Part shown: positions 3,846 to 64,000 of the stretch, piece by piece
Numbering within the stretch: the stretch's first letter is position 1
How the letters are laid out: the number at the start of each line of letters is the position of its first letter
Assembly: GCF_963921235.1 (NCBI RefSeq)
Contig: NC_086097.1
Location: forward strand, 139,998,001 to 140,062,000
DNA: 64,000 nt
Reading direction: 5' to 3'
Source of the DNA: Mobula hypostoma
Taxonomy: Eukaryota
The notes under the pieces: model-generated
Seen by the model: the letters and a program-made list of their open reading frames with translations, nothing else
Databases searched by the model: none
Told to the model about the DNA's origin: nothing
Translations under genes and position numbers: made by a program

Positions 3846-4035
3846 GATGAGGTGGAGGATAAATGCGTGGCTGAGGGATTGGAGCAGGGGGCAGGGATTC
3901 AAGTTTTTGGATCATTGGGACCTCTTTTGGCGCAGGTGTGACCTGTACAAAAAGGACGGGTTACACTTAAATCCTCGGGGGACCAATATCCTGGCAGGGA
4001 GATTAGCGGGGGCTACTGAGGTGACTTTAAACTAG
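3846..4035 (+). CDS. C-terminal remnant of CR1 ORF1 (SGNH/esterase-like domain)
   Basis: INAWLRDWSRGQGFKFLDHWDLFW...KDGLHLNPRGTNILAGRL...TLN*. DGLHL is the SGNH block V motif typical of CR1 ORF1. Confidence 0.85.
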
Positions 4036-7000
4036 AATGGTTGGGGGGTGGGAATCAAATTAAAGCGGCTAGGTGTGAGGAGGTTAGTTCACAACAGAGG
4101 GATGGGAACCAGTGCAGAGAGACAGAGGGGTGTAAAGTGAGCGTAGAAGCAAAAAGTACAAAGGGGAAAAGTAAAAGTGGCAGGCCGACAAATCCAGGGC
4201 AAGCATTAAAAAGGGCTAAGAGAGTTGTAAAAGAGTGCCTCAAGGCTTTATGTGTCAATGCAAGGAGCATTCGTAATAAGGTGGATGAATTGAAAGTGCA
4301 GATTGTTATTAATGATTATGATATAGTTGGGATCACAGAGACATGGCTCCAGGGTGACCAGGGATGGGAGCTCAACGTTCAGGGATATTCAATATTCAGG
4401 AGGGATAGACACGAAGGAAGGGGAGGTGGGGTGGCGTTGCTGGTTAAAAAAGAGATTAACGCAATAGAAAGGAAGGACATAAGCCGGGAAGATGTGGAAT
4501 CGATATGGGTAGAGCTGCGTAACACTAAGGGGCAGAAGACGCTGGTGGGAGTTGTGTACAGGCCACCTAACAGTAGTAGTGAGGTCGGAGATGGTATTAA
4601 ACAGGAAATTAGAAATGTGTGCAATAAAGGAACAGCAGTTATAATGGGTGACTTCAATCTACATGTAGACTGGGTGAACCAAATTGGTAAAGGTGCTGAG
4701 GAAGAGGATTTCTTGGAATGTATGCGGGATGGTTTTTTGAACCAACATGTCGAGGAACCGACTAGAGAGCAGGCTATTCTGGACTGGGTTTTGAGCAATG
4801 AGGAAGGGTTAATTAGCGATCTTGTCATGAGAGGCCCCTTGGGTAAGAGTGACCATAATATGGTGGAATTCTTCATTAACATGGAGAGTGACGTAGTTAA
4901 TTCAGAAACAAAGGTTCTGAACTTAAAGAGGGGTAACTTTGAAGGTATGAGACATGAATTAGCTAAGATAGACTGGCAAATGACACTTCAAGGATTGACG
5001 GTGGATATGCAATGGCAGGCATTTAAAGGTTGCATGGATGAACTACAACAATTGTTCATCCCAGTTTGGCAAAAGAATAAATCAAGGAAGGTAGTGCACC
5101 CGTGGCTGACAAGAGAAATTAGGGATAGTATCAATTCCAAAGAAGTAGCATACAAATTAGCCAGAGAAAGTGGCTCACCTGAGGACTGGGAGAAATTCAG
5201 AGTTCAGCAGAGGAGGACAAAGGGCTTAATTAGGAAGGGGAAAAAAGATTATGAGAGAAAACTGGCAGAGAACATAAAAACGGACTGTAAAAGCTTTTAT
5301 AGATATGTAAAAAGGAAAAGACTGATAAAGACAAATGTAGGTCCCCTGCAAACAGAAACAGGTGAATTGATTATGGGGAGCAAGGACATGGCAGACCAAT
5401 TGAATAATTACTTTGGTTCTGTCTTCACTAAGGAGGACATAAATAATCTTCCAGAAATAGTAAGGGACAGAGGGTCCAGTGAGATGGAGGAACTGAGCGA
5501 AATACATGTTAGTAGGGAAGTGGTGTTAGGTAAATTGAAGGGATTGAAGGCAGATAAATCCCCAGGGCCAGATGGTCTGCATCCCAGAGTGCTTAAGGAA
5601 GTGGCCCAAGAAATAGTGGATGCATTAGTGATAATTTTTCAAAACTCGTTAGATTCTGGACTAGTTCCTGAGGATTGGAGGGTGGCTAATGTAACCCCAC
5701 TTTTTAAAAAAGGAGGGAGAGAGAAACCGGGGAATTATAGGCCGGTTAGCCTAACGTCGGTGGTGGGGAAACTGCTGGAGTCAGTTATCAAGGATGTGAT
5801 AACAGCACATTTGGAAAGCGGTGAAATGATCGGACAAAGTCAGCATGGATTTGTGAAAGGAAAATCATGTCTGACGAATCTCATAGAATTTTTTGAGGAT
5901 GTAACTAGTAGAGTGGATAGGGGAGAACCAGTGGATGTGGTATATTTGGATTTTCAAAAGGCTTTTGACAAGGTCCCACATAGGAGATTAGTGTGCAAAC
6001 TTAAAGCACACGGTATTGGGGGTAAGGTATTGGTGTGGGTGGAGAATTGGTTAGCAGACAGGAAGCAAAGAGTGGGAATAAACGGGACCTTTTCAGAATG
6101 GCAGGCGGTGACTAGTGGGGTACCGCAAGGCTCAGTGCTAGGACCCCAGTTGTTTACAATATATATTAATGACTTGGATGAGGGAATTAAATGCAGCATC
6201 TCCAAGTTTGCGGATGACACGAAGCTGGGTGGCAGTGTTAGCAGTGAGGAGGATGCTAAGAGGATGCAGGGTGACTTGGATAGGTTGGGTGAGTGGGCAA
6301 ACTCATGGCAGATGCAATTTAATGTGGATAAATGTGAAGTTATCCACTTTGGTGGCAAAAATAGGAAAACAGATTATTATCTGAATGGTGGCCGATTAGG
6401 AAAAGGGGAGGTGCAACGAGACCTGGGTGTCATTATACACCAGTCATTGAAAGTGGGCATGCAGGTACAGCAGGCGGTGAAAAAGGCGAACGGTATGCTG
6501 GCATTTATAGCGAGAGGATTCGAGTACAGGAGCAGGGAGGTACTACTGCAGTTGTACAAGGCCTTGGTGAGACCACACCTGGAGTATTGTGTGCAGTTTT
6601 GGTCCCCTAATCTGAGGAAAGACATCTTTGCCATAGAGGGAGTACAAAGAAGGTTCACCAGATTGATTCCTGGGATGGCAGGTCTTTCATATGAAGAAAG
6701 ACTGGATGAACTGGGCTTGTACTCGTTGGAATTTAGAAGATTGAGGGGGGATCTGATTGAAACGTATAAGATCCTAAAGGGATTGGACAGGCTAGATGCA
6801 GGAAGATTGTTCCCGATGTTGGGGAGGTCTAGAACGAGGGGTCACAGTTTGAGGATAGAGGGGAAGCCTTTTAGGACCGAGGTTAGGAAAAACTTCTTCA
6901 CACAGAGAGTGGTGAATCTGTGGAATTCTCTGCCACAGCAAACTGTTGAGGCCAGTTCATTAGCTATGTTTAAAAGGAAGTTAGATATGGCCCTTGTGGC

Positions 7001-7040
7001 TACAGGGGTCAGGGGGTATGGAGGGAAGGCTGGGTTCTGA
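4020..7040 (+). CDS. CR1 ORF2: AP-endonuclease plus reverse transcriptase, uninterrupted. Frame open from 4020; no AUG before the endonuclease domain
   Basis: VNARSIRNK, GITETW, VYRPP, MGDFN, SDH (APE domain). [42 protein letters not shown] (RT domain). Stop TGA at 7038-7040. Confidence 0.95.
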   Translation, partial: GDFKLEWLGGGNQIKAARCEEVSSQQRDGNQCRETEGCKVSVEAKSTKGKSKSGRPTNPGQALKRAKRVVKECLKALCVNARSIRNKVDELKVQIVINDYDIVGITETWLQGDQGWELNVQGYSIFRRDRHEGRGGGVALLVKKEINAIERKDISREDVESIWVELRNTKGQKTLVGVVYRPPNSSSEVGDGIKQEIRNVCNKGTAVIMGDFNLHVDWVNQIGKGAEEEDFLECMRDGFLNQHVEEPTREQAILDWVLSNEEGLISDLVMRGPLGKSDHNMVEFFINMESDVVNSETKVLNLKRGNFEGMRHELAKIDWQMTLQGLTVDMQWQAFKGCMDELQQLFIPVWQKNKSRKVVHPWLTREIRDSINSKEVAYKLARESGSPEDWEKFRVQQRRTKGLIRKGKKDYERKLAENIKTDCKSFYRYVKRKRLIKTNVGPLQTETGELIMGSKDMADQLNNYFGSVFTKEDINNLPEIVRDRGSSEMEELSEIHVSREVVLGKLKGLKADKSPGPDGLHPRVLKEVAQEIVDALVIIFQNSLDSGLVPEDWRVANVTPLFKKGGREKPGNYRPVSLTSVVGKLLESVIKDVITAHLESGEMIGQSQHGFVKGKSCLTNLIEFFEDVTSRVDRGEPVDVVYLDFQKAFDKVPHRRLVCKLKAHGIGGKVLVWVENWLADRKQRVGINGTFSEWQAVTSGVPQGSVLGPQLFTIYINDLDEGIKCSISKFADDTKLGGSVSSEEDAKRMQGDLDRLGEWANSWQMQFNVDKCEVIHFGGKNRKTDYYLNGGRLGKGEVQRDLGVIIHQSLKVGMQVQQAVKKANGMLAFIARGFEYRSREVLLQLYKALVRPHLEYCVQFWSPNLRKDIFAIEGVQRRFTRLIPGMAGLSYEERLDELGLYSLEFRRLRGDLIETYKILKGLDRLDAGRLFPMLGRSRTRGHSLRIEGKPFRTEVRKNFFTQRVVNLWNSLPQQTVEASSLAMFKRKLDMALVATGVRGYGGKAGF

Positions 7041-7299
7041 GTTGGATGATCAGCCATGATCATAATAAATGGCGGTGCAGGCTCGAAGGGCCGAATGGCC
7101 TACTCCTGCACCTATTTTCTATGTTTCTATGTTTCTATGTATCCTGTTTAATACTATTGGCTAGCTTGCCTTCGTATTCTATCTTTTCCTTCTTTATGAC
7201 AGTAAAGCCACACTCAGTGAAGACCTGTATCACATGAGGTTGCATCAATATCCAATATTTTTCCTCATCATTCACTACACTGTTACACCTCTTTATTTT

Positions 7300-10127: not shown

Positions 10128-12036
10128 TTAGCGGAAGTTAGAGAAGTCGATGTTCATGCCATCAGGTTGGAGGCTACCCAGACGGAATATAAGATGTTGT
10201 TCCTCCAACCTGAGTGTGGCTTCATCTTTACAGTAGAGGAGGCCGTGGATAGACATGTCAGAATGGGAATAGGATGTGGAATTAAAATGTGTGGCCGCTG
10301 GGAGATCCTGCTTTCTCTGGCGGACAGAGCGTAGATGTTCAGCAAAGCGGTCTCCCAGTCTGCGTCGGGTCTCGCCAGTATATAAAAGGCCACATCGGGA
10401 GCACCGGACGCAGTATATCACCCCAGTCGACTCGCAGGTGAAGTGTTGCCTCACCTGAAAGGACTGTTTGGGGCCCTGAATGGTGGTAAGGGAGGAAGTG
10501 TAAGGGCATGTGTAGCACTTATTCCGCTTACACGGATAAGTGCCAGGAGGGAGATCGGTGGGGAGGGATGGGGGGGGGACGAATGGACAAGGGAGTTGTG
10601 TAGGGAGCGATCCCTGTGGAATGCAGAGGGGGGGAGAGGGAAAGATGTGCTTAGTGGTGGGATCCCGTTGGAAGTGGCGGAAGTTACGGAGAATAATATA
10701 TTGGACCCGGAGGCTGGTGGGCTGGTAGGTGAGGACCAGGGGAACCCTATTCCTAGTGGGGTGGCGGGAGGATGGAGTGAGAGCAGATGTACGTGAAATG
10801 GGGGAGATGCATTTAAGAGCAGAGTTGATAGTGGAGGAAGGGAAGCCCCTTTCTTTAAAAAAGGAAGACATCTCCCTCGTCCTAGAATGAAAAGCCTCAT
10901 CCTGAGAGCAGATGCAGCGGAGACGGAGGAATTGCGAGAAGGGGATGGTGTTTTTGCAAGAGACAGGGTGAGAAGAGGAATAGTCCAGATAGCTGTGAGA
11001 GTCAGTAGGCTTATAATAGACATCAGTGGATAAGCTGTCTCCAGAGACAGGGACAGAAAGATCTAGAAAGGGGAAGGAGGGGTCGGAAATGGACCAGGTA
11101 AACTTGAGGGCAGGGTGAAAGTTGGAGGCAAAGTTAATAAAGTCAACGAGTTCTGCATGCGTGCAGGAAGGAGCGCCAATGCAGTTGTCGATGTAGCGAA
11201 GGAAAAGTGGGGGACAGATACCAGAATAGGCACGGAACATAGATTGTTCCACAAACCCAACTAAAAGGCAGGCATAGCTAGGACCCAAACGGGTGCCCAT
11301 AGCTACACCTTTAGTTTGGAGGAAGTGGGAGGAGCCAAAGGAGAAATTATTAAGAGTGAGGACTAATTCCGCGAGACGGAGCAGGGTGGTGGGAGAGGGG
11401 AACTGATTAGGTCTGGAATCCAAAAAGAAGCGGAGAGCTTTGAGACCTTCCTGATGGGGGATGGAAGTATATAAGGACTGGACATACATGGTGAAAATAA
11501 AGCGGTGGGGGCCAGGGAACTTAAAATCATCGAAAAGTTTAAGAGCGTGAGAAGTGTCACGAACATAGGTCGGAAGGGATTGAACAAGGGGGGATAAAAC
11601 AGTGTCGAGGTATGCAGAAACGAGTTCGGTGGGGCAGGAGCAAGCTGAAACAATGGGTCTACCTGGACAGGCAGGTTTGTGGATCTTGGGTAGGAGGTAG
11701 AAACGGGAAGTGCGGGGTGTGGGAACTATAAGGTTGGTAGCAGTGGATGGGAGATCCCCTGAGCGGATAAAGTCGGTGATGGTGTGGGAGACAATGGCCT
11801 GGTGCTCCTTAGTGGGGTCATGATCGAGGGGTAAATAAGAGGAGGTATCCGCGAGTTGTCGCTGTGCCTCGGCAAGGTAGAGGTCAGTACGCCAGACTAC
11901 AACAGCACCCCCCTTATCGGCAGGTTTAATAATAAGGTTAGGATTAGTGCGGAGGGAGTGGAGAGCAGAGCGTTCTGAAGGAGTGAGGTTGGAATGGGGA
12001 CAAGGTGCGGTGAAGTCGAGACGGTTGATGTCCCAT
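10128..12036 (-). pseudogene. PLE ORF (RT, Cys-rich linker, GIY-YIG endonuclease): open reading frame but 5'-truncated and lacking catalytic Asp residues
   Basis: IIKPADKGGAVVV, YLLPKIHK, GVAMGT, CKRNKCYTC...C, VIYCVRCSRCGLLYTGET. Motif A reads FTMYV (normally D) and motif C reads YIDN (normally YIDD). Confidence 0.9.
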
Positions 12037-15000
12037 AGGGACATAGGCATAGGGAACCTTGGTTTTCAAGGAATATTGGCAATCTGGTTAAGAAAAAGAG
12101 AGAGGTGTATAGCAGGTATTGGCAACAAGGAACAAATGAGGTACTTGAAGAGTATAGAAAATGTAAGAAAATACTAAAGAAGGAAATAAGGAAGGCAAAA
12201 AGAAGACATGAGGTTGCTTTGGTGAATAATGTGAAGGTAAACCCGAAGGGTTTCTACAAGTATATTAAGAATGAAAGGATAGTAAGGGACAAAATTGGTC
12301 CCCTAGAAGATCAGAGTGGTCGTCTATGTGTGGAGCCTCACTAGATGAGGGAGATCTTAAACAGCTTTTTTGCATCAGTATTTACTCAGGAAACTGGCAT
12401 AAAGGGAAACAAGCAGTAGTGTCATGGAACATATAGAGATTAAAGAGGAGGAGGTGCTTGCTGCCTTACAGCGAATAAAGATAGATAAATCCCCCGGGCC
12501 TGACATGATATTTCCTCGGACCTTGAGGGAGACTAGTGTAGAGATTGCAGGGGCCCTGGCAGAAATATTGAAAATGTCCTTAGCCGCTGTAAAAGTAAAC
12601 CAGGTAATTACAGGCTGGTGAGCCTGACATCAGTAGTAGGTAAATTATTGGAAGGTGTTCTGAGAGATCGGATATACAAGTATTTGGACAGCCAAGGGCT
12701 GATTAAGGATAGTTAGCATGGCTTTGTGTGTGGTAGATCATGTTTAATGAATCTTGTAGAGTTTTTCGAGGAGGCTACCAAGAAAGTAGATGAAGGAAAG
12801 GCTGTGGATGTTGTCTACATGGACTTTGACAAGGTCCCACATGGGAGGTTAGTTCAAAAGGTTCAGACACTAGGTATCCATGGAGAGGTTGTAAACTGGA
12901 TTTGAAATTGGCTTTGTGGGAGAAGACAAAGAGTGGTATGGATGATTGCTTCTCAGACTGGAGGCCTGTGACTAGTGGTGTGCCTCAGGGATCTATGCTG
13001 GGACCATTGTTGTTTGTTGTCTATATCAATGATCTAGATGATAATGTGGTAAATTGGATCAGCAAGTTTGCTGATGACACTAAGATTGGAGGCGTTGTGG
13101 ACAGCAAGGAAGGCTTTCAAAGCTTGGCTTGCAGAGGGATCTGGACCAACTGGAAAAATGGCAGATGGAATTTAATGCAGACAAGTGTGAGGTGTTGCAT
13201 TTTGGAAGAACAAATCAAGGTAGGACGTACACAGTAAATGGTAGGGCACTGAGGAGTGCGGAGGAACAAAGGGATCTGGGAGTTCAGATACATAATTCCC
13301 TGAAAGTGGCATCACAGGGAGACAGGGTTGTAAAGAAGGCTTTTGGCATCCTGGCGTTCATAAATCAAAGTATTGAGTATAGGAGTTGGGATGTTATGGC
13401 GAGGTTGTATAAGACTATGGTGAGGTTGTATAAGACATTGGTGAGGCCAGATTTGGAGTATTGTGTGCAGTTCTGGTCACCTAACTATAGGAAGGATATC
13501 AGTAAGTTTGAAAGAGTGCAGAGAAGATTTACTAGGATGTTGCCGGGTCTTCAGGAGGTGAGTTACAGGGAAAGATTGAACAGGTTAGGACTTTATTCCT
13601 TGGAGTGTAGAAGAATGAGGGGGGGTTTGATAGAGGTTTACAAAATTATGAGGGGTATAGACAGAGTAAATGCGAGTAGGCTCTTTCCACTTAGATTAGG
13701 AGAGATAAATACGAGAGGACATGGATTTAGGGTGAAAGGGGAAAGGTTTAGGGGGAACTTCTTCACTCAGAGAGTGGTGGGAGTGTGGAACGAGCGGCCA
13801 TCTGATGTGGTAAATGCGGGGTCACTCTTAAGTTTTAAGAATAAATTGGATAGATACATGGATGGGAGAGGACTGGAGGGTTATGGACTGGGTGCAGGAC
13901 AATGGGACTAGCAGAATAATGTTTCAGCACAGACTAGAAGGGCCAAATGGCCTGTTTTCTGTGCTGTAGTGTTCTATGATTCTGTGGTTCTAGCACAAGA
14001 ACCAACAGTACAAACAAATCAAAGCTTTTGAAAACCATGAAATGCATAAAAACAAAATTGTTTGCAACAAATTACTACATGGTTTTATGAAAGAAAGTGG
14101 CAATCATGTGCTGTTTGCTCTGGAAACACTGATTTAGTGAAACAAAATACTGATTTATGATTTGCAGGTCTGACTAAAAGACATTAAGAGTCAGGAGCAG
14201 AATTAGGCCATTCAGCTCTTTGAATGTGCTCTGCCATTCCATCATGGCTGATTTATTATCCCTCAACCCCATTCTCCTGCCTTCTCCCTGTAACCTTTGG
14301 TGCCCTCAATCAAGCTCCATTTTAAATATACCCAAGCAACACACACAAAATGCTGGAAGAACTCAGTAGTCCAGGCAGTGTCTATGGAAAAAAGTACAAT
14401 CGATGTTTTGGGCTGAAACCCTTTGGCAGGACTGGAGAAAAAAAGCCGAGGAGTAGATTTAAAAGGTGGGTGGAGGGGAGAGAAAAACACCAGGTGATAG
14501 GTGAAGCCTGGAGAGGGAGGGATGAAGTAAAGAGCTGGGAAGTTTTTTGGTGAAACTGAAGGCCATGTAAGAAAGAAAAAGGGGAGAGGAGCACCAGAGG
14601 GAGGAGATGGGCGGGCAAGGAGATAAGGTATGTGAGGGAAAGGGGATGGGAAATGGTGAAAGGTCGGGGGGGGGGGCAGCATTACCAGAAGTTTGAGAAA
14701 TTGATGTTATGCCATCAGTTTGGAGGCTATCCAAATGGAATATAAGGTGTTGTTCCTCCAGCTTAAGTGTGGCCTCATCACAACAGTGGAGGAGGGCATG
14801 GATGGATATATGGGAATGGGAGGTGGAATAAAGATGTGGGGCCACTGGGAGATTCCGCTTGTTCTGGCGGACGGAGCATTGATGCGAAGCGGTCTCCCAG
14901 CTGACTCACAGGTGGTGTTGCCTCACCCAGAAGGACTATTTATGCCCCTGAGTGGTAGTGAGGGAGGAGGTGTAGGGTCAGACGTAGCACTTGTTCTACT

Positions 15001-15251
15001 TGCAAGGATAAGTGCCAGGAGGGAGATCAGTGGGGAGGGATGAATGGATGAGGGAGTCGCGTAGGGGGCAATCCCTGTAGAAAGCAAAAAGTAAGGGGGT
15101 GGGAAAGATGTGCTCGGTGGTGGGATCCCGATGGATGTGGCAGAAGTTTTGGTGAATTATGTGCTGAGGCCGGTGGGGTGGTAGGTGAGGTCAAGAGGAA
15201 CCCTATCCCTGGTAGGGTGGTGGGAGGATGGGGTAAGAGCAGATGTATGTA

Positions 15252-16856
15252 CATACCCCATTTCCAGAAAAGTTGGGATATTTTCCAAAATGTAATAAAA
15301 ACAAAAATCTGTGATATGTTAATTCACGTGAACCTTTATTTAACTGACAAAAGTACAAAGAAAAGATTTTCAATAGTTTACTGACTACAACTTAATTGTA
15401 TTTTGTAAACATACACACATTTAGAATTTGATGGCTGCAACACACTCAACAAAAGTTGGGACAGAGTTAAAATAAGATTGAAAAGTACACAGAATATTCA
15501 AGTAACACCGCTTTGGAAGACTCCACATTAAGCAGGCTAATTGGTAGCAGGTGAGATGTCATGACTGGGTATAAAAGTAGCGTCCATCAAAGGCTCAGTC
15601 TTTGCAAGCAAGGATGGGTCGTAGCTCACCCCTTTGTGCCAAAATTCGTGAGAGAATTGTTAGTCAGTTCAAAAGGAACACTTCTCAACGCAAGATTGCA
15701 GAGAATTTAGGTCTTTCAATATCTACAGTACATAATATTGTGAAAAGATTCAGAGAATTCAGAGACATCTCAGTGTGTAAAGGGCAAGGTGGGAAACAAC
15801 TGTCGAATGCGCGTGATCTTCGAGCTCTCAGGCGGCACTGCCTAAGAAACCGTCATGCTACTGTGACAATTATAGCCACCTGGGCTCGGGAGTACTTCGG
15901 AAAACCATTGTCACTGAACATAGTCCGTCGTTGCATCCAGAAATGCAACTTGAAACTGTATTACGCAAGGAGGAAGCTATACATCAACTCTATGCAGAAA
16001 TGCCGGCGAGTTCTCTGGGCCCGAGCTCATCTCAGATGGACTGAAAGACCGTGGAACCGTGTGCTGTGGTCAGATGAGTCCACGTTTCAGCTAGTTTTCG
16101 GAAAAAACGGGCGTCAAGTTCTCCGTGCCAAAGATGAAAGCGACCATCCAGATTGTTATCAGCGAAAGGTGCAGAAGCCAGCATCTGTGATGGTATGGGG
16201 GTGCATCAGTGCCCACGGCATGGGTGAGTTGCATGTATGTGAAGGTACCATTGACTCTGAGGCGTATATTAGGATTTTAGAGAGATATATGTTGCCATCA
16301 AGGTGACGTCTCTTCCCGGGACGTCCATGCTTATTTCAGCAGGACAATGCCAGACCACATTCTGCACGGGCTACAACTGCGTGGCTTTGTAGACACAGAG
16401 TGCGTGTGCTTGACTGGCCTGCTGCCAGTCCAGATCTATCTCCTATTGAAAATGTATGGCACATCATGAAGAGGTGAATCAGACAACGGAGCCCACGGAC
16501 CGTTGAGCAGCTGAAATCTTATATCAAGCAAGAATGGACGAAATTTCCAATTGCAAATCTACTACAATTAGTATCCTCAGTTCCAAAATGATTAAAAAGT
16601 GTTATTAAAAGGAAAGGTGATGAAACACAATGGTAAACATGCCTCTGTCCCAACTTTTGTTGAGTGTGTTGCAGCCATCAAATTCTAAATTTGTGTATGT
16701 TTACAAAATACAATTAAGTTGGTCAGTAAAACTATTGAAAATCTTTTCTTTGTGCTTTTGTCAGTTAAATAAAGTTTCACGTGAATTAACATATCACAGA
16801 TTTTTGTTTTTATTGCATTTTGGAAAATATCCCAACTTTTCTGGAAATGGGGTTTG
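15252..16856 (+). mobile_element. Full-length Tc1-like DNA transposon (about 1.6 kb) with IR/DR-type long TIRs
   Basis: TIRs of about 215 bp (15252-15466 and 16643-16856), each with outer and inner AAAAGTTGGGA repeats. TA duplication at 15250-15251 and 16857-16858. Confidence 0.95.
15614..16636 (+). pseudogene. Tc1 transposase (340 codons, DD34E) with three in-frame TGA stops
   Basis: ATG at 15614, HTH region, WSDESTF, VMVWGCIS, FQQDNARPH-34 residues-E in SPDLSPIENVW. Stops at 16304, 16475 and 16589; no frameshift; terminal TAA at 16634-16636. Confidence 0.92.
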
Positions 16857-18474
16857 TAAAATGGAAGAGATGGTGGAGGAAGGGAAGCCCCCTTCCTTGA
16901 AACAGGAGAACATCTCCTTCATTCTAGAATGAAGAGCCTCATCTTGAGAGTAGATGTGGCAGAGACGGAGGAATTGAGAGAATGAGATGGCGTTTTTACA
17001 AGTAGCAGGGTAGGACGAGGTATCATCCAGGTAGCTGTGAGAGTCCGTGGGTTTGTAATACACGTTGGTGGATAAGCTGTCTCTGGAGATGGAGACTGTG
17101 AGATCGTGAAAGGAGAGGTGTTGAAAATGGACCAGGTGAATTTGAAGGCAGGATGGAAGTTGGAGGCAAAGTGGATGAAGTCGATGAGTTCAGCACGGGT
17201 GCAGGAAGCAGCACCAATGCAGTTGTCGATGTAGCGAAGGAAAAGTGCGGGACAGTCACCAGTGTAGGCTTGGAACATAAACTGTCCACGTAGCCGACAA
17301 ACAGGCAGGCATAGCTGGGACCCATGTGAGTGCCCGTGGCTACACCTTTTGTTTGAATGAAGTGGTAGGAGCCAAAGGAGAAATTACTTAGAGTGAGGGT
17401 AAGTTCTGCTCAGCAAAGGAGAGTGGTGGTGGAGGGGAACTGGTTAGGTTTGGTGTCCAGAAAAAAACGGAGAGCTTTGAGGCCTTCCTGGTGGTGTATA
17501 GAGACTGGACATCCACAGTGAAAGTAAGCTGACGGAGGGCCAAGGAACCTGAAATCCTTGCAAAGATCGAAAGTGTGTGAGGTGTCATGGACGTAGATAG
17601 GAAGAATCTGAACTAGGGGGGATAGAACAGAGTTGAGGTATGCCCCCACCCTTTAAATCTATTCCTCAACTTTTTTTCTCCAGTCCTGCTGAAGGGTTTG
17701 GCCCAAAATGTTGACTGTACTTTCTTTCCATAAATGCTACCTGGCCTTCTGAGTTCCTCCAGCATTTTGTGCATGTTGTTCGGATTTCCAGCATCTGCAG
17801 TTTTCTCTTGTTTTAAATATACCCAACGGCTTGGCCTCCACCACCGTCTGTTGCAATGGATTCCACAGGTTCATAGTCCTCTGGCTGAAGAAGTTCCTCC
17901 TCATCTCTGTTCTAAATGGACGTCCTTCTATTCTGAGGTTGTACGCTCTGGTCCAACACTACAGGAAACATCTTCTCCACACCCACTCTCTCTATCAATA
18001 TTCAATAGATTTCAATGAGTCCCCCTCCCCCATTCTTCTAAACTCCTGTGAGTACAGGCCCGGAGCCATCAAATGCTCCTCATATTTTAACCCTTCCATT
18101 CCTGGAATTATTTGTGAACCTCCTCTGCACCCTCCAATGCCAGCACATCTTTTCTTTGATAAGGGCCTCTAAAACTGCTCACAATACCCTCATATGCAGA
18201 TTTGTTTTATATCACATCACAGCCAAAGGGAGCCACTGGTGCCAGATCACTGTGTAAAATACACCACACCTGAGTGTTCCTAGCCTGTCTCCCATCTTCC
18301 CATCTTCCCATCTCTCCATCTCCCTGTTGCACCACCTCTTCTGCCAGAGTTCTTTGTGCTTTTGTCCTATTCTTGTACTCACACCAGAATGAGAATCAGT
18401 CCAGCACTGAGTAGATGAATGGTGACTTTTGTTTCCTTGTAACTCTGAAAGTCAAAGCTCTTGTCTTGTTTATA

Positions 18475-22200: not shown

Positions 22201-22964
22201 TGTAGGAAGGAAGTGGGAAGTTCAGAGAGGGTGGAGGAGATTTACTAGGATGCTGCCTGGAGTAAAGAGCATGTCTTCTGAGGAAAGGTTGTGCGAGCTG
22301 GGGTTTTTATCTTGAGCGGAGAATTGATAGAGGTCTATAAAATGATAAGAGGCTTCGATAGAGTGGACTCCATATTTTTAACCAGGGTGGAAATGGCTAA
22401 CCTAAAGGGCATAATTTTCAGGTGATTGGGGAAAAGTATAGGGGGAGGAGGAATGGCAGAAGTATTTCTTTTTGGCTGAGAGTGGTGGGTGCGTGGAATG
22501 CACTGCCAGGGTGGTGGTAGAGGCCAATACATTAGGGACTTTTTAAGAGACGTTTAGATAGGCACTTGGGCTATGTGGGAGGGAAGGGTTAGGTTGTTCT
22601 TGGAATAAGGTCAATGCAGTGTAGTGGGACGAATGGCCTGTACTGTGCTGTGGTGTTTTATGTTCTGTATGTGCACTCTACTATCTGTTATACCTCTCAT
22701 CAAACCAGAGATTAACTATAGTTCAGTGAGGAGTGCCAAGAGCTTGCTGGGAGCAACTCTAAGCACACTCCCATGCTGAGCTGCCAGCCTAGTTTAGCTG
22801 CACCTCAGATCAACGTGTGCTAAATAACAAAAATAACATGCTACAAACAGCTAAGTGGTCAAATCAAAGCTTTTCAGTTCTGCCATATAAATTCATTTAT
22901 TCGCAGTATGTTGGTGTATAACTAAACAAGTAACCATTTAAAAATTTAGTTAGGCCACACTTGA

Positions 22965-26766: not shown

Positions 26767-28990
26767 TATGTTAGGTCACAGATCTCTCAGTGGGTGAGCA
26801 CCTGGGGGACGGTGACCACCGCTCCCTGGCCTTTAGCATTATTATGGAAAAGGATAGAATCAGAGAGGACAGGAAAAGTTTTAATTGGGGAAGGGCAAAT
26901 TATGAGGCTGTAAGGCTAGAACTTGCGGGTGTGAATTGGGATGATGTTTTTGCAGGGAAATGTGCAATGGACATGTGGTTGATGTTTAGGGATCTCTTGC
27001 AGGATGTTAGGGATAAATTTGTCCCGGTGAGGAAGATAAAGAATGGTAGGGTGAAGGAACCATGGGTGACAAGTGAGGTGGAGAATCTAGTCAGGTGGAA
27101 GAAGGCAGCTTCCATGAGGTTTAGGAAACAAGGATCAGATGGGTCTATTGAGGAATATAGGGAAGCAGGAAAGGAGCTTAAGAAGGGGCTGAGAAGAGCA
27201 AGAAGGGGGCATGAGAAGGCCTTGGCGAGTAGGGTAAAGGAAAACCCCAAGGCATTCTTCAATTATGTGAAGAAAAAAAAAGATGACAGGACCGATTAGA
27301 GATAAAGGTGGGAAGATGTGCCTGGAGGCTGTGGAAGTGAGCGAGGCGCTCAATGAATATTTCTCTTCGGTATTCACCAATGAGAGGGAACTTGATGAAA
27401 GTGAGGACAATATGAATGGGGTTGATGTTCTGGAGCATGTTGATATTAAGGGAGAGGAGGTGTTGGAGTTGTTAAAATACATTAGGATGGATAAGTCCCC
27501 GGGGCCTGACGGAATATTCCCCAGGCTGCTCCAGGAGGCGAGGGAAGAGATTGCTGAGCCTCTGGCTAGGATCTTTATGTCCTTGTTGTCCACGGGAATG
27601 GTACCAGAGGATTGGAGGGAGGTGAATGTTATCCTCTTGTTTAAAAAAGGTAGGGATAGTCTGGGTAATTATAGACCAGTGAGCCTTACGTCTGTGGTGG
27701 GAAAGCTGTTGGAAAAGATTTTTAGAGATAGGATCTATGGGCATTTAGAGAAATATGGTCTGATCAGGGACAGTCAGCATGGCTTTGTGAAGGGCAGATC
27801 ATGTCTAACAAGCCTAATAGAGTTCTTTGAGGAGGTGACCAGGCATATAGATGAGGTGTGTGTGATCTACATGGATTTTAGTAAGGCATTTGACAAGGTT
27901 CCACACGGTAGGCTTATTCAGAAAGTCAGAAGGCACGGGATCCAGGGATGTTTGGCCAGGTGGATTCAGATTTGGCTTGCCTGCAGAAAGCAAAGGGTTG
28001 TGGTGGAGGGAGTACATTCGGATTGGAGGGTTGTGACTAGTGGTGTCCCACAAGGATCGGTTCTAGGACCTCTACTTTTTGTGATTTTTATTAACGACCT
28101 GGATGTGGGGGTAGAAGGGTGGGATGGCAAGTTTGCAGACGACACAAAGGTTGGTGGTGTTGTGGATTGTGTAGAGGATTGTCGAAGAGTGCAGAGAGAC
28201 ATTGATAGGATGTAGAAGTGGGCTGAGAAGTGGCAGATGGAGTTCAACCCTGAGAAATGTGAGTTGGTACACTTTAGAAGGACAAATTCCAAGGCGGAGT
28301 ACCAAGTAAATGGTAGGTTATTTGGTAGTGTGGAGGAGCAGAGGGATCTGGGGGTACATGTCCACAGATCCCTGAAAGTTACCTCACAGGTGGATAGGGT
28401 AGTTAAGAAAACTTATGGGGTGTTAGCCTTCATAAGTCGAGGGATAGAGTTTAAGAGTGGAGAGGTAATGATGCAGCTCTATAAAACACTGGTTAGGCCA
28501 CACTTGGAGTACTGTGTCCACTTCTGGTCACCTCACTATAGGAAGGACGTGGAAGCATTGGAAAGGGTACAGAGGAGATTTACCAGGATGCTGCCTGGTT
28601 TAGAGAGTATGCATTATGATCAGAGTTTAAGGGAGCTAGGGCTTTACTCTTTGGAGAGAAGGAGGATGAGAGGAGACATGATAGAGCTATACAAGATATT
28701 AAGAGGAATAGGTAGAGTGGACCCAGTGCCTCTTCCCCAGGGCACCACTGCTCAATACAAGAGGACATGGCTTTAAGGTATGGGGTGGGAAGTTCAAAGG
28801 GGATATTAGAGGAAGATTTTTTACTCAGAGAGTGGTTGGTGCCTGGAATGCACTGCCTGAGTCAGTGGTGGAGGCAGATACACTAGTGAAGTTTAAGAGG
28901 AATTTAAGGTGGGGGGTTATATGGGAGGCAGGGTTTAAGGGTCGGCACAACATTGTGGGCCAAAGGGCCTGTACTGTGCTGTGCTGTGTT
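26767..28990 (+). mobile_element. 5'-truncated CR1 LINE with few disablements
   Basis: ORFs 26790-27299, 27283-28215 and 28237-28776 carry RT motifs. 5-bp TSD AAGTT (26762-26766 and 28991-28995). Confidence 0.9.
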
Positions 28991-29562
28991 AAGTTGAAAT
29001 CCCTCATTATAACAACCCTAATATTTTTACAAATTTCCTTAATCTGTTTACATATATATTTCTCAATGTCCCTGAGGGTCATTGGAGGGTCTGTTGTACA
29101 ATCCCATCAGTGTGGTTGCACCCTTCCTATTCCTGAGTTCTACCCAAATGGGCTTCGTGTCTGAACCCTCCATTATGTCTTCCTTGAGTGGAACTGTGAT
29201 ATTGTCCCTGATTAATTATACCACCACACCACCCCCTCCCTTTTACCTCCTTCTCTATCTTTTATAAAAGTTAGAAAACTTGGTACATTGATCATCCATC
29301 CCTGCCCCTCTCTCAACCAAGTTTCTGTAATGGCCACATCGTAGTTCCATATACTGATCCATGCTCTAAGTTCATCACTTTTACCCATAATACTCAGTCA
29401 TGGCGTTAAAATACACACTCCTTCAAACTATCTGACCCATCATACCTGTTATTTTGATTTTGCCTTTTATACTTTCCCTGACATCTACAGTACCTTCCTG
29501 TCTGATCCTTCATTACTTGACCTGGTGCTCTGGTTCCCAGCCTTCTGCAAAACTTGTTTAAA

Positions 29563-30504
29563 ATAGTTAGATAGGTACTTTATTGATCCAAAAGGAAATT
29601 ACAGTGTCATAGTAGCATTACAGGTGCACAGATATACAAAATTAAAGAGAAGTAAGAAAGAATAAAAAAATAAGTTACCCGAAACAGTCCAACAGGAGGG
29701 GTCATTGCTTCCCCAGTTTATAGGTTGACTCATTGTAGAGCCTTATGGCCAAGGGTAAGAATGACCTCAAATAGCGTTATTTGGAGCAGCGCAGTTGTCT
29801 TAGTCTGTTACTATACGTGCTCCTCTGTTCAGCAAAGGCTGCACGCAGAGGATGAGAAACATTGTCCACAATTGCCGGGATTTCCAGGAGGGTCCTTTGT
29901 TCTGCCACAGCCTCCAGTGTGTCTAGTTTGACTCCTATAACAGAGCCAGCTTTTCTAATCAGTTTATTGAGTCTGTTGGCATCACCCGTGTTGATGCCAT
30001 TGCCCCAGCACACCACCACTTGGAAGATTGTACTGGTGACAACAGACTGGTAGAACATTTGAAGTAGAGGCCTGCATACTCCAAAGAACCTCAGTCTCCT
30101 CAAGAAGTAGAGGTGACCCTGGCCCTTCTTGTACACAGTCTCTGTGCTCCACTCAAGTTTGTCATCCAGGTGCATCCCCAGGTACTTGTAGGTCCTCACC
30201 ATCAATAATAACAGGGAGCAGTTCAGGCTTAGTTTTCTTAAAGTCCATCACCATCTCCTTTGTCTTACTGATGTTGAGCTGCAGATGGTTCAGCTCACAC
30301 CATTTGTCAAAGTTCTCCACAAAGTATTCATCCTCCTGTCCTCCCTTTATACATCAAACTATTGTTGAGTCATCCGAGAATTTCTGCGGATGATATGACT
30401 CAGTACGAGGTATACAGGGTAAACAGGGAGGGAGCCCTGTGGGGCCCCAGTGCTGCTTATAGCCGTGTCTGACACACAGCTTTGAAGCCACACAAACTGT
30501 GGTC
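29563..30504 (-). mobile_element. 5'-truncated Rex1/Babar LINE
   Basis: KFSDDSTIVG, YKYLGMHLDDKLEWS, LYFLRRLR, HPL. Tail GATCAATAAAGTACCTATCT. Confidence 0.85.
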
Positions 30505-57679: not shown

Positions 57680-60600
57680 TGTTATGGAACTGGAGCTGCA
57701 GCTTGATGATGTCAGCTCATAGGGGCAAATGCAGAGGCCATAGATAAGAGCTACATGGAGGTAGTCACGCCCAAGTTTCAGGAGGCAGGTACCTGAGTGA
57801 CTCTCAAGAGAGCAAATTTAAATAGGCAGCAAAAGAAAATAAGTGTACCACTTGGATAAAGTTGGGGTGGGGGGTGGGGTGATGGAGAACCTATCAGGGG
57901 AAACCATAGTGACCAGGGGTGTCTGGCACTGTGGTTCAGAAGAGAAGAGCTGATTCCATAATTAAAGGAGCAGAAAGCAGATAGTATGCTGTCTCCCAGG
58001 TGCTAGGGTCAGGGATGTCTCAGAAAGGGTCCACGACATTCTAAAGGAGGAGGGTGAACAGCTGGAAGTCGTGGTACATAATGGTGCCAACAACACAGGT
58101 AGAAAAAGGCAGGAGTTTCTAAAGATAGAATATAGAGTGTTAGGTATAAAGTTGAAAACAGGACCTCCAGGGTAGTAACCTCTTGACTGCTCCCTGTGCC
58201 ACGTGCCAGTGAAGGCAAGAATAGGATGATTTGGCATGATAATGCATGGCTGAAGAATTGGGGCAGGGGGCAGGGTTTCAGATTTCAGGATCATTGGGAT
58301 CTCATCTAGGGAAGATGTGATCTGTAGAAAAGGACAGGTTACACCTCAACCCAAGGGAAACCAATATCCTTGCCGGCAGGTTTGCTAGAGCTGTTGGAGA
58401 GGGTTTAAACTAATTTGGCAAGGGGATGGGAACCAGGGTGATAGGGCTGAGGATGGGAAGTTTGTTATACAACTAAATGCAGTGTGTAATGGGACTGAGA
58501 GGAAGGACAAGCAAATTGCAGTCAGTGGGATGAGCTGAAGTGTAACTTGGGGGCCAAAATCTAAAAGGATGATGAACACAGGTCTGAAGGTGCTATATTT
58601 AAATACACACAGTATACGGAATAAGGTGAATAATCCTGAGACGCAGTTAGAGATTTGCAGGTATAATGTTGTGGGCCATCTCTGAGTCATGGCTGAAAGA
58701 AGAACATAGTTGGGGGCTTATCATCCAAGGATGCACATTGTATCGAAACGACAGGAAGAGAGGCAGAGGGGGTGGGGTGGCTCTTTTGGTAAAAATGAAA
58801 TCAAATCTTTAGAAAGAGGTGACATAGGATCAGAAGATGTAGAATCCTCGTGGGTAGAGTTAAGAAACTGCAAGAGTAAAAGGACCCTGATGTGAGTTAT
58901 ATACAGGTTTCCAAACAATAACCAGGATGTGGGCTACAAATTACAATGGAAAATAGAAAAAGAATGTAAAAAGCACAATATTGCAATAATGATGGGGATT
59001 TCAATATGCAGGTAAATTGGGAAAATCAGAATGGTGCTGGATCCCAAGAGAGGGTAGTAGTAGGACACCTACAAGATGACTTTTTAAGAACAGCTTGAGG
59101 TGGAGCCCTCCAGGGGGAACAGCATTTCTGGATTGGGTGTTATGTAATGACCCAGATTTGATCAGGGAGCTTAAGGTGAATGAACCCATCGGAGCCAGTG
59201 ATCATAATATGATAGAACTCGCCCAGCACGTTGAGGAGGAGAAGTTAAAATTGGATGTATCAGTATTACAGTGCAGTAAAGGAAATTACAGAGGCATGAG
59301 AGAGGAGCTGGCTAAAGTTGATTGGAAGGGGACACTAGCAGGGATGATGGCAAAACAGCAATGACTGGTGTGTCTGCAAGAAATTCAGAAGGCAAAGGAA
59401 AGATGAAGAAGTATCCTAAAGGGAGGATGAGGAATCATGGCTGACAAGGGGAGTCAAAGACAGCATAAAGGCAAAAGAGAGGGCATATAATATTGCAAAA
59501 ATTAGTGGGAAGGTAGAGGTTTGGAAAGCTTTTAAAAACCAGCAGAAGGCAATTTTAAAAGCTGTAAAGAGAGAAAAGATGTCACATGATGGTAACTTAG
59601 TCTATAATATAAAAATGTTTTAAACGTTTTTTTTTCAGATAGTAAAAGAGACAAGAGTGGATATCAGATCGCTGGAAAATCAAACTGGAGGGGTAGTAAT
59701 GGGGGACAAACTTAATTGGTATTTTGCATCAGTCTTCACTGGGAAATACAAGAGTGCCAGGGGACAAAAGTGAGTATCGTTGCTATTACTTCGGAGATGT
59801 TTGGGAAGCTGAAAAATCAGGAGGTAGATAAGTCACCTGGACCAGATGGACTATACCCCAGGGTTCTGAAAGAGGTAGCTGAATAGATCGTGGAAGCATT
59901 AGAAATGATATTTCAAGAATCACTGAATTCTGGAATGGTTCCAGAGGACTGAAAACAGCAAATGTCACTTCATTCTTTCCGAAGGGGGGGAGGGAGAAGA
60001 AAGGCAATTATAGGCCTGTTAGGCTGACTTCAGTGGTTGGAAAGATGATGGGAGTCTATTATTAAGGATGAGGTTTCGGGTTACTTTGCGGCATGTGATA
60101 GAACGGGCAAAAGTCAGCATGCTTTTCTAAAAGGGACATTTTGCCTGATCAATCTGTTGGAATTCTTTGAAGAAATATCAGACAGGATAGACAAAGGAGA
60201 GTCAGTGAATGTTATCTATTTGGTTGTTCAGAAGGCTTTTGACAAGTTGCTGCACATGAGGCTGCTTTACAAGATGAGAGCTCGTGGTACTACAGGGAAG
60301 ATACCCACATGGATAGAAGATTGGCTGACTAGCAGGACTGGGAATAAAGGGGGTGTGTACTGTCTGGCTGCCACTGACTAGTGGTGTGCCACAGAGGTCA
60401 GTGTTAGAACCGCTTCTTTTCATGTTGTGTGTCAATAATTTGGAAAGGCACAATGATGTGTTAATGGTCTGAATGATGGAATTAGTGGTTTTGTGGACAA
60501 CACTAAGATAGGTGGGGGGCAGGTAGTGTTGAGGGATCAGGGTGTGTGCAGTAGGACTTAGGCAGACTGGGGAAATGGGCAAAGAAGTGGCAGGTGGAAT

Positions 60601-61362
60601 ATTGTGTAGGAAATTGTATGGTTATGTTTAAACAGTGGTGGAAAGAGTAAAGGCAAGGGTTATTTTCTGAATGTGAAGAAAATTCAAAGATCAGAGGTAC
60701 AAAGGGGCTTGGGAGTTCTCGTGCAGGATTCCCTAAAGGTTAACTTGCAGGTTGAGTAGGTGGTAAGGAAGGGAAATGCAATTTTACCATTCATTTTGAG
60801 AGGACTAGAATATAAAAGCAAGGATGTAATGCTGAGGCTTTATAAGGCATTGGTCAGACTTCACTTGGAGTCTTGTGAGCAGTTTTGGGCCCCTATCTAA
60901 GAAAAGATGTGCTGGCATTGGAGAGGGTCCAAGGAGGTTGGTGGAATGATCCCAGGAATGAAAGGGTTAACATATGAGGTGTGTTTGATGGCTCTGGGCC
61001 CATAATCACTGCAGTTTGTAAGATGGAGCGAGTGGGGATTTCACTGAAAACTATCAAATATTGAAAGGCCAAGTCAGAGTGGATGTGGAGACGATGTTTC
61101 CTATAGTGGGGGAGTCTAGGACCAGAGGGCACAGCCTCAGAAACAGAACAGAGATGAGGACATTTTCTTTTTAATCAGAGGGTGGTGAATCAGGAATTCA
61201 TTACCACAGATAGAAGTGCAGGCCAAGTCATTGGCTATATTTAAGGCAGAGGTTAATAGGTTTTTGATTATCAGGGCATCAAAGGTACAGGGAGAAGACA
61301 GGAGAATGGGGTTGAGGAGGGTAATGAATCAGTCATGGTGGAATGGCCTAATGCTACTCCTA
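57680..61362 (+). mobile_element. Near full-length decayed CR1 LINE (ORF1 and ORF2) in the last BMPER intron
   Basis: ELELQLDD, EVVTP, VCCLPGARVRDV, LHLNPR.TNILAGRF...EGLN* (ORF1). TTTAAAC junction at 58404-58410. APE and RT remnants. Confidence 0.88.
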
Positions 61363-61599: not shown

Positions 61600-62240
61600 T
61601 TCTGCAAATGAGTGTTCAGAGGGGTCTAAGTGTTCTTGTGCATGAGTCACAAAAAATATCAGGCAGGCCCAAAAAGTAATGAAGAAGGCAACCCATTTGG
61701 GCCTTTCTTCCAAAGGAGTTTAAAAGTAGGGAGATTCTGTTGTAATTATCAGGGTGTTCGTGAGCTGGAATACTGTGTACGATTTTGGTCCACTTACCTA
61801 AAAATCATGTAATAACACTGGAGGTGGTCCAAGGAGAATTGCCAAGCTGATTCCTGGGATGAGATGATTGTCCTATCAGGAAATGCTAAAGACTTTGCTT
61901 ATTTATTCCTTAGGGCTTATAAGAATGAGGGTGATTTTATTCAAACATATTAAATGCTAAAGGGAGGGGATTCACAGTCAAGGGAACACAGCTACAAGAG
62001 GATGGTCATTTAAAACTGAGATATGGGGAAAATTCTGATGGCAGTGGCTCTCTGGGGTTCTCTGTCCCACTGAGTGGAGAGATCTGGATCATTTGAACTG
62101 GAGGTGGATAAATATTGGACAGATCAAAGAATACAGGGGAAGTGGCACAGGATTTGAAGCCAGTGTAGGTTAGTCATGGTAATATTAAATGGTGAGTCAG
62201 GCTTGAAGGGCCAGTTGGCCTACTCCTGCTCCTATTTTCT
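61600..62240 (+). mobile_element. Old CR1 3' fragment
   Basis: LEYCVRFWS.YL remnant; tail GGCCTACTCCTGCTCCTATTTTCTT. Confidence 0.7.
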
Positions 62241-62300
62241 TGAGGCTTAGGCTGAAAGATAAAATGTCTCCTGAAGAATGTGATGATCAGGATCAGTGGC

Positions 62301-62345
62301 AGGGTTTAGAGCGGGTGAAGCAGGGTTTAGAGCGGGTGAAGCAGG
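62301..62345. repeat. 21-bp tandem duplication
   Basis: AGGGTTTAGAGCGGGTGAAGC twice, perfect. Confidence 0.9.
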
Positions 62346-62672
62346 CTGTGTGCTGTGACAGGAGGAGCTGTGTGTTAGCAGTAAACGTATGGAAGCTGCT
62401 GCAGTGCGTGGCTGAGAAACCGGCAGTCCTTGGAGACTGTGAACGGTGTGTGAGGCTATTCTAGATCCGTGCCACATAACCAATGAAGGCCTTGTAACTG
62501 TGAGCATTCCAGAGGCAGTTGCACCAAGTCCCCTGTGAATTCGAACACAGTGAACACAAGACAAATTCCCAAAGCGCTCCACACAGCCTTATCCCAGTAC
62601 AAAGTGTGAGCTCCCACTGTGCAAACTTTGCTCACGAATGACCAGATCAGGCTGGCCCTGTCGGCAACTCAC

Positions 62673-62803
62673 CCAGACAGCTCATCTCTGGCTTCCAGTG
62701 CACATGCACACCTTCCCTCTGACAGGCCCGTGTGTAGGCAATTAGAGACTCGCAGTAACAATTCTTGTGCATGGGGCACTCACACATGTCAGTGACACAG
62801 GAT
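62673..62803 (-). CDS. BMPER: BMPER penultimate coding exon, C8 domain ([43 protein letters not shown]), 131 nt
   Basis: tttcccacag acceptor and G|gtgagt donor, phase 2 to 1; matches [33 protein letters not shown]. Confidence 0.95.
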
Positions 62804-62838
62804 CTGTGGGAAAGATCACAGGAGAAGTAAGAGCAAAA

Positions 62839-64000
62839 TGTCCACATCCACACCCACCATCCCTGTCCACATCCAACTCCGCTGTTCCCATCTCACATCC
62901 ACCTTTCCCTGTCCACATCCAATTCATCTCACATCCACCATCCCTGTCCACATCCAACTCATCTCACATCCATCATTCCCTGTCCACATCCAACTCCGCC
63001 TTTCCAAATCTCACATCCGTCATTCCCTGTCCACATCCAACTCATCTCACATCCATCATTCCCTGTCCACATCCAACTCATCTCACATCCATCATTCCCT
63101 GTCCACATCCAACTCTGCGTTTCCATCTCACATCCATCATTCCCTGTCCACATCCAACTCCACGTTTCTATCTCACATCCATCATTCCCTGTCCACATCC
63201 AACTCATCTCACATCCATCATTGCCTGTCCACATCCAACTCCGCGTTTCCATCTCACATCCATCATTCCCTGTCCACATCCAACTCCACCATCCCCATCT
63301 CACATCCATCATTCCCTGTCCTCATCCAACTCCACCGTCCCCATCTCACATCCACCATCCCTGTCCACATCCAACTCCACCGTCCCCATCTCACATCAAC
63401 CATCCTTGTCCACATCCAACTCCACCGTCCCCATCTCACATCCACCATCCCTGTCCACATCCAACTCCACCGTCCCCATCTCACATCCACCATCCCTGTC
63501 CACATCCAACTCCACCGTCCCCATCTCACATCCACCATCCTTGTCCACATCCAACTCCACCGTCCCCATCTCACATCCACCATCCCTGTCCACATCCAAC
63601 TCATCTCACATCCATCATTCCCTGTCCACATCCAACTCATCTCACATCCATCATTCCCTGTCCACATCCAACTCATCTCACATCCACCATCCCTGTCCAC
63701 ATCCAACTCCACCGTCCCCATCTCACATCCACCATCCCTGTCCACATCCAACTCCACCGTCCCCATCTCACATCCACCATCCCTGTCCACATCCAACTCC
63801 ACCGTCCCCATCTCACATCCACCATCCCTGTCCACATCCAACTCATCTCACATCCATCATTCCCTGTCCACATCCAACTCATCTCACATCCATCATTCCC
63901 TGTCCACATCCAACTCCGCGTTTCCATCTCACATCCATCATTACCTGTCCACATCCAACTCCACGTTTCTATCTCACATCCACCATCCCTGTCCACATCA
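62839..64000. repeat. Minisatellite array of interspersed 35/36-bp and 45/46-bp units, continuing past the window end
   Basis: Core CATCTCACATCCA(C/T)CAT(T)CCCTGTCCACATCCAACT, with or without a 10-bp insert CCACCGTCCC or CCGCGTTTC variants. Confidence 0.95.

Follow-up and report, generated by a model that had tools for sequence, protein, structure and literature searches.

How translation of the second open reading frame (ORF2) of long interspersed nuclear elements (LINEs) starts has been described as an important open question, for which reinitiation and internal ribosome entry models are listed (PMC3894237). [quoted passage not shown] A second point of reference is ZfL2-1, whose ORF1 protein (ORF1p; structure 4C1B) carries an SGNH esterase at its C-terminus, with the endonuclease and reverse transcriptase (RT) encoded by ORF2, the same layout as in the elements below (PMC3905857). 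The heptamer U_UUA_AAC is among the shiftiest on mammalian ribosomes (PMC5009743). The DNA analysed here, a stretch of 64,000 nucleotides (nt) from Mobula hypostoma (contig NC_086097.1, positions 139,998,001 to 140,062,000; hereafter the window, numbered from its first letter), is dense in LINE copies, and its closest named homologues are ray proteins. The segment under study is where ORF1 and ORF2 meet in a dead CR1-type LINE, designated copy B, in which this same heptamer directly precedes the ORF1 stop codon. Judged from the sequence, -1 ribosomal frameshifting probably yielded the ORF2 product of such elements in the form of an ORF1-ORF2 fusion. The elements are assigned to the CR1 clade on the basis of their architecture and their named vertebrate ORF1 homologues. 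The literature searched gave no report of frameshifting for CR1; Haas 1997, Kajikawa 1997, Kapitonov and Jurka 2003, supplements and Repbase/Dfam lay outside that search and may already note the site.

In copy B the 3' part of ORF1 (57927..58413, forward strand), comprising the SGNH esterase domain and ending in ...GEGLN-stop, is decayed and split over three frames. A profile built from 23 ORF1 homologues matches it at 57951-58157, 58142-58339 and 58273-58410, and the alignment of the annotated Hypanus protein P0161 to it begins at 57927. The slippery heptamer T TTA AAC, of the form X XXY YYZ, lies at 58404..58410 (+) in the ORF1 phase, the surrounding codons being GAG GGT TTA AAC TAA, and is immediately followed by the ORF1 stop TAA (58411..58413, +). 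From the heptamer the -1 frame reads FKLIWQGDGNQ; by translation, the heptamer, its phase, the stop and this peptide are exactly as an earlier note on this DNA had given them. A stop codon at 58386..58388 (+), five codons 5' of the heptamer by translation, closes the -1 (ORF2) frame, and the overlap of ORF1 and ORF2 in copy B is therefore short. Downstream, the -1 frame linker extends from the heptamer to the endonuclease (58404..58594, +), with in-frame ATGs at 58530, 58569 and 58572 and one stop at 58536-58538, which probably comes from a copy-specific deletion near 58510; among contigs of related copies over this linker there are loose contig ends before 58513, and 58547 shows T>A in 85-88% of the depth. 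The decayed ORF2 itself (58557..61314, +), located by tblastn of the copy A ORF2, comprises an apurinic-type endonuclease and an RT; relative to the heptamer, the first piece of the endonuclease is read in the -1 frame. It matches the copy A ORF2 at 37-45% in five pieces. That the copy is dead is evident from the three frames of ORF1 and the 20 stops within the aligned ORF2 pieces.

Copy A (3850-7140, +) is a young 5'-truncated insertion with the same heptamer phase as copy B. Its heptamer (4026-4032) is followed by TAG, and its -1 frame reads FKLEWLGGGNQ at the start of an ORF2 of 1006 open codons (4020..7040, +), bounded upstream by an in-frame stop at 4017-4019; the Pfam models PF03372, PF14529 and PF00078 score above cut-off on it. 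This copy had been termed intact, which holds for its ORF2 and fails for ORF1, of which only the last 61 codons are kept; the copy adjoins an inverted CR1 fragment (3140-3845). Its 3' end carries three TTTCTATG units, and none was seen in the decayed tail of copy B. Over three aligned blocks the DNA of copies A and B is 63-74% identical, which bears out the description of copy B as a divergent subfamily with the same heptamer and phase, and the two are different families that share ancestry. The window contains a further junction, that of copy C, which has its heptamer TTTAAAC on the reverse strand at 29556..29562, with the -1 frame reading FKQVLQKAGNQ and AAG at the stop position. Its ORF1 (31305-30504, -) is split from the heptamer by a 941-nt inserted element, to which the first T of the heptamer possibly belongs. 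The insert (29563-30503, -) is a 3' fragment of a different LINE, with an RT C-terminus, an AATAAA and a short-repeat tail, and sits exactly at the end of the copy C ORF1, at most one codon before the heptamer.

These three copies, together with loci L001, L003 and L004 from a metagenome scan that returned 80 loci, provide six DNA junctions; L002, which ends two bases into the heptamer position, was excluded, and the junction of L003, missed by the motif scans, was read separately. L001, L003 and L004 possess T TTA AAC followed by TAG, TAG and TGA respectively, with the endonuclease in the -1 frame. The heptamer is hence present at all six vertebrate-type CR1 junctions, and none of the 20 upstream positions is conserved in more than four of the six (the sequence upstream in copy C being the insertion). 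With the codon usage of the copy A ORF2, the probability of a U-ending codon followed by TTA and AAC is 0.014 per lineage. Within the window TTTAAAC occurs 15 times on both strands, and a stop codon comes next in only two cases, both of them CR1 ORF1 ends. Related-copy depth was obtained from public sequence data in the form of contigs, with four runs representing four organisms; per run, 13,380-18,112 contigs aligned to copy B at an identity of at least 80%. In all four runs the bin with the heptamer is the deepest of 29, but depth also varies with the decay of parts of copy B, and the peak at the junction is a hint only. No variant falls within 58399-58420 among the 40 of 151 variants that were seen; these are mainly private decay of copy B and do not gauge coding constraint. 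The earlier note had offered copy B as independent support for the frameshift model from within the window: the heptamer and its phase are indeed kept there, and much stronger support comes from outside the window.

A large part of that support comes from proteins. A search with a profile built from four window fragments recovered 582 proteins at E <=0.001, and the analysis covered the best 150 of these 582. The C-terminus is Leu-Asn (LN) in 46 of the 150 ORF1 homologues, and where the distance from the DGxH motif to the end is exactly 26 residues, as in 35 proteins, it is LN in 28. An LN end is found in 29 of 60 esterases of the DGxHL type versus 2 of 25 of the DGxHP type, which served as the control. 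Thirteen different amino acids are found directly before LN, yet Glu, Gln, Lys, Met or Trp, the codons of which are unable to end in U, occur there in only one of the 46 proteins; at the next two positions they account for 17 and 19 of the 46 (Fisher p 5e-7). Named LN-ending proteins (seven of the ten looked up) come from Narcine, Synaphobranchus, Ranitomeya, Chrysemys, Pelodiscus, Salvator and Zootoca, i.e. a ray, an eel, a frog, two turtles and two lizards. Four decayed copies continue past the LN site into FKL and a tail, and in P0161 the esterase is read straight through FKL and the linker into the endonuclease. The six junctions and the bias at position -3 in the 46 proteins establish that the shift site is conserved at the nucleotide level, and this conservation extends across vertebrate classes.

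It might be argued that no recoding is involved, and that Leu-Asn is a C-terminal requirement of ORF1p itself, its codons being inherited by descent. LN is invariant in 23 aligned proteins, though these were selected for having it, and the lineages share ancestry. However, a profile of 10 ORF1 homologues matches the solved LINE ORF1 esterase 4C1B (E 1e-39) only up to profile position 209 of 213, and the esterase fold is therefore complete before the slip site. Moreover, relatives of the DGxHP type have free C-termini, and such a requirement is silent on the third base that precedes LN, on the fixed TTA and AAC codons and on the G-tract after the stop; we consider it highly improbable. The ORF1 fragments of the window taken alone score below the Pfam cut-off for an SGNH esterase, while the homologue profile does match copy B.

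The second line of evidence for frameshifting is the state of the linker. In the -1, 0 and +1 frames it contains 0, 5 and 8 stops in copy A (70 codons), 0, 1 and 3 in L001 (33 codons) and 0, 5 and 10 in L003 (88 codons); pooled over these three junctions, the least decayed of the six, there are 0 stops in the -1 frame over 191 codons versus 11 and 21 in the other frames. No AUG precedes the endonuclease in copy A, L001 or L004, and the first Met of the copy A ORF2 frame is codon 209, inside the endonuclease. At an off-frame stop rate of 8%, the chance of finding the 103 codons of the A and L001 linkers both open and AUG-free is about 1.5e-4. The earlier note had argued for translation of this frame from a conserved peptide lying upstream of any AUG. 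In copy B there is indeed no AUG before offset 126, but the argument from the peptide is weak because the heptamer and the stop dictate FKL and the glycines fall on the G-tract, and in-frame AUGs follow later in the linker. Outside the window the residues common to all three junctions are only F-K-L-x-x-x-G. Comparison of copies A and B for a codon-position bias, which had been proposed as a check, gave nine differences over 11 codons, split 2/3/4 over codon positions 1, 2 and 3, with no clear coding signal; two synonymous changes, in the N and Q codons, agree with coding but are too few. Given the linker AUGs of the copy B family, copy B alone leaves AUG initiation possible, and it is A and L001 that exclude it. 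What argues for a translated -1 frame is thus the open, AUG-free linkers of these two rather than the peptide.

These linkers also bear on termination-reinitiation, the published mechanism for L1 and SART1 (as given in PMC2881922 and PMC3894237), under which the ribosome would halt at the ORF1 stop and begin anew further downstream, at an AUG or near-cognate codon of the -1 frame, with the heptamer and G-tract acting as a ribosome tether. It accords with the linker AUGs in family B and, at an early position, in L003, with the TTG at codon 6 of copy A, and with a gene caller having put the start of protein P0162 at the codon 6 position. However, codon 6 is TTG, CAA/CAG, AAG or TCG across the junctions, and this variability implies that there is no conserved start codon there; being G-ending in five of six junctions yet coding L, Q, K or S, it points to a constraint at the level of the RNA rather than the peptide. 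A conserved AUG was rejected as a candidate, and the linkers of A, L001 and L004 are free of AUG. Reinitiation further leaves unexplained the exact in-phase X XXY YYZ and a frame that is open all the way back to the heptamer, and we regard it as unlikely.

RNA processing was also considered, in the form of a splice or a transcriptional slip that joins ORF1 and ORF2. G-runs can serve as splicing enhancers, and the G-tract could then be such an enhancer with the TAG as acceptor, in line with an AG after the heptamer in A, L001 and L003. The stop is TAA in B and TGA in L004, so there is no conserved AG, and a splice acceptor was rejected on this ground. The three T and three A of the heptamer make short runs for polymerase slippage, which was likewise rejected. 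Joining at the RNA level thus appears extremely improbable.

The candidate stimulator of the -1 frameshifting favored here is a conserved G-tract of the GG-NN-G5/6-N(N)-GGG type, recovered in the six-junction alignment and located in copy B at 58417..58430 (+). Counting from the first base of the heptamer, positions 15, 18-22 and 25-27 are G in five or six of the six junctions; the first G3 run begins 10 nt 3' of the heptamer in A, L001, L003 and L004 and 11 nt in copy B, and 58421 is G in 87-95% of the related-copy depth. A two-tier quadruplex pattern fits four of the six junctions, the others being L001 and the decayed copy C. The earlier note had instead proposed as stimulator a canonical G3N1-7 quadruplex, GGGG-AT-GGG-AACCA-GGG-TGATA-GGG, at 58422..58446 (+). 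This pattern is present in copy B as described, the minimum-energy fold computed by ViennaRNA with quadruplexes allowed contains it, and synthetic quadruplexes (G4s) stimulate -1 slippage on UUUAAAC (PMC3919603). Nevertheless, the pattern is found at one of the six junctions and is missing from copy A, the copy with the intact ORF2. Position 58437 reads A in 83, 76, 82 and 82% of the depth in the four runs, which turns the third G-run into GAG, and the four-run pattern is therefore a minority state of the copy B family. Its loops are of 2, 5 and 5 nt and its spacer of 11 nt departs from the optimum of 6-8 nt given for the synthetic cases (PMC3919603); moreover, of 114 segments taken from the same G-rich element, 7% attain its G4Hunter score. 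The pattern occurs seven times in the window, and shuffling the 60 nt that follow the heptamer produces it in 91 of 10,000 trials; it is thus uncommon, though not conserved. A shift driven by this canonical quadruplex is already contradicted by conservation and is very unlikely; the four-run pattern of copy B is incidental. Canonical G3 patterns are also found at 7005-7034 (+), 28911-28941 (+) and 22568-22588 (+), at the ORF2 C-terminal end or in the 3' region of three CR1 copies. The negative result on the quadruplex matters in that it is the short conserved G-tract, and not the four-run pattern, that deserves effort.

Taken together, the most probable mechanism would be as follows. In the active ancestors most ribosomes would have translated ORF1 and stopped at the codon directly after U_UUA_AAC, while a minority would have slipped one base back on the heptamer, with tRNA-Leu moving from UUA to UUU and tRNA-Asn from AAC to AAA. 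The slipped ribosomes would have continued in the -1 frame via a variable basic linker into the endonuclease and RT, so that esterase-ORF1p fused to ORF2p would be made in a low, fixed proportion, like retroviral gag-pol. Slippage can be enhanced by a stop that adjoins the slip site, and the pause might be provided by this adjacent stop together with the G-tract, the latter acting either as a protein-binding site or by folding into a compact two-tier quadruplex.

Several observations weigh against this mechanism. Within 100 nt, single RNA folds at the junctions gave local z-scores of -0.1 to +0.6, the fold of the six-junction alignment had 0 consensus pairs, Rfam had no match at the junction, and a base-paired 3' stimulator, i.e. 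a stem-loop or pseudoknot 5-9 nt downstream, was not found. Stops are present in the -1 linker of copy B (1, with 7 and 7 in the 0 and +1 frames; 64 codons), copy C (6, with 2 and 8; 70 codons, the endonuclease motif not being found in frame) and L004 (2, with 4 and 5; 76 codons), and are read as decay. To these must be added the in-frame linker AUGs of the copy B family and L003 mentioned above, and the near-cognate codons of copy A, which besides the TTG at codon 6 include ATT at 12 and GTG at 38. There are only six DNA junctions, three of them in one window, and their ancestry is shared; similarly, some of the 150 proteins are decayed copies or closely related to one another, and their counts are not independent events. 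Helix periodicity may add to the bias at position -3, and P0161 might represent one copy carrying an indel, or an artefact of gene prediction. The 40 of 151 variants seen suggest, without proving it, that the heptamer is invariant inside the copy B family.

The widening of the frameshift model to jawed vertebrates is supported by the distribution of the site. If correct, it would mean that frameshifting of the retroviral kind operates in a major clade of LINEs and that its polymerase is an ORF1p fusion with an esterase; annotated CR1 ORF2 starts would then be wrong, and the signal would be a 30-nt cassette. The more specific proposal, that CR1 across jawed vertebrates makes this fusion polymerase with the pause supplied by a two-tier quadruplex in the G-tract 6-10 nt downstream, is doubtful; were it true, it would constitute a gag-pol-like switch in nature that is driven by a quadruplex and has been retained for more than 400 million years. 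As of 2016, no natural case of frameshifting stimulated by a G4 was known (PMC5009743), and G4-promoted frameshifting has been described at codon repeats of human genes (PMC12809536).

More distant esterase LINEs, which lack the heptamer, display a different layout. Among the 80 metagenome loci, 49 ORF1 ends were identified by motif, 29 of them with an endonuclease motif within 600 nt. The endonuclease is in the same frame as ORF1 in 21 of these, in the -1 frame in five and in the +1 frame in three, and nearly all of the 21 are joined across a single UGA-C. Of the 21 in-frame loci, 20 have an open linker and three (L005, L042 and L048) a Met-free one, and TGA followed by C occurs at 37 of the 49 stops. 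The open in-frame TGA loci, mostly with TGA-CTA or TGA-CCA, are L005, L009, L018, L021, L022, L027, L031-L033, L035-L037, L039, L042, L044, L048, L051, L054, L061 and L068. This looks like programmed stop-codon readthrough as a second route to the same fusion, and if true it would represent a convergent solution. Beyond these loci, a word-index search with an ORF1 fragment gave no match. In the viral collection a single ORF1 query found no relatives, the A4 query gave five confirmed stretches and 0 loci, and a junction pattern gave three loci, none of which translates into a CR1-like frame; the prokaryote genomes yielded four bacterial SGNH-type loci.

The annotated host proteins P0161, P0033 and P0083 are made up of CR1 ORF1/ORF2 sequence or terminate in it; names among them include hydroxyacid oxidase 2 isoform X1 (ray) and shisa-4 isoform X1 (turtle), suggesting mis-annotation or exonisation. 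Elsewhere in the window, frames of a Penelope-like RT with a GIY-YIG-type domain are open by translation for 645 codons at 10128-12065 (-) and 251 codons at 1277-2032 (+), an open frame of 241 codons at 15581-16306 (+) reads like a fragment of a Tc1/mariner transposase, and the window end (~62000-64000) is occupied by a tandem repeat that is rich in C and strongly negative in GC skew.

Set against the described systems, the CR1 junction differs from L1 and SART1 in that these make a separate ORF2 protein, whereas a fusion is predicted for CR1, and in that it has no UAAUG overlap (PMC2881922, PMC3708506, PMC3894237). For ZfL2-1, the text of PMC3905857 uses neither "frameshift" nor "slippery", and esterases of the DGxHP type are mostly without the LN end. 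Recoding has been proposed between ORF1 and RT in Paramecium LINE groups 1-3 (PMC5405496), with a frameshift and pseudoknot in Penelope-like elements (PMC8557442), and in the gag of the non-LTR (long terminal repeat) element HeT-A (PMC5009743); as presented in these sources, the cases involve +1 shifts, readthrough, other clades or pseudoknots, and none is a vertebrate CR1. The synthetic G4 stimulators resemble CR1 in having UUUAAAC followed by G-runs, but are engineered, three-tiered and spaced by 5-8 nt, whereas CR1 has two G-runs and a GG at 6-10 nt (PMC3919603). From gag-pol systems CR1 is set apart by being a non-LTR LINE, by the 0-frame stop right after the heptamer and by a G-tract without a detectable hairpin or pseudoknot; membership in this class is unproven because the test for a base-paired stimulator failed and the fusion product is a prediction. 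Shared with retroviral and LTR-retrotransposon gag-pol, PEG10 and coronavirus ORF1a/1b are an X XXY YYZ heptamer, in infectious bronchitis virus (IBV) the very same U_UUA_AAC, a polymerase in the -1 frame and a short overlap (PMC5009743). The excess of structural protein over polymerase in those systems (PMC5009743) resembles what the frameshift model predicts for CR1, which would work like a gag-pol -1 frameshift.

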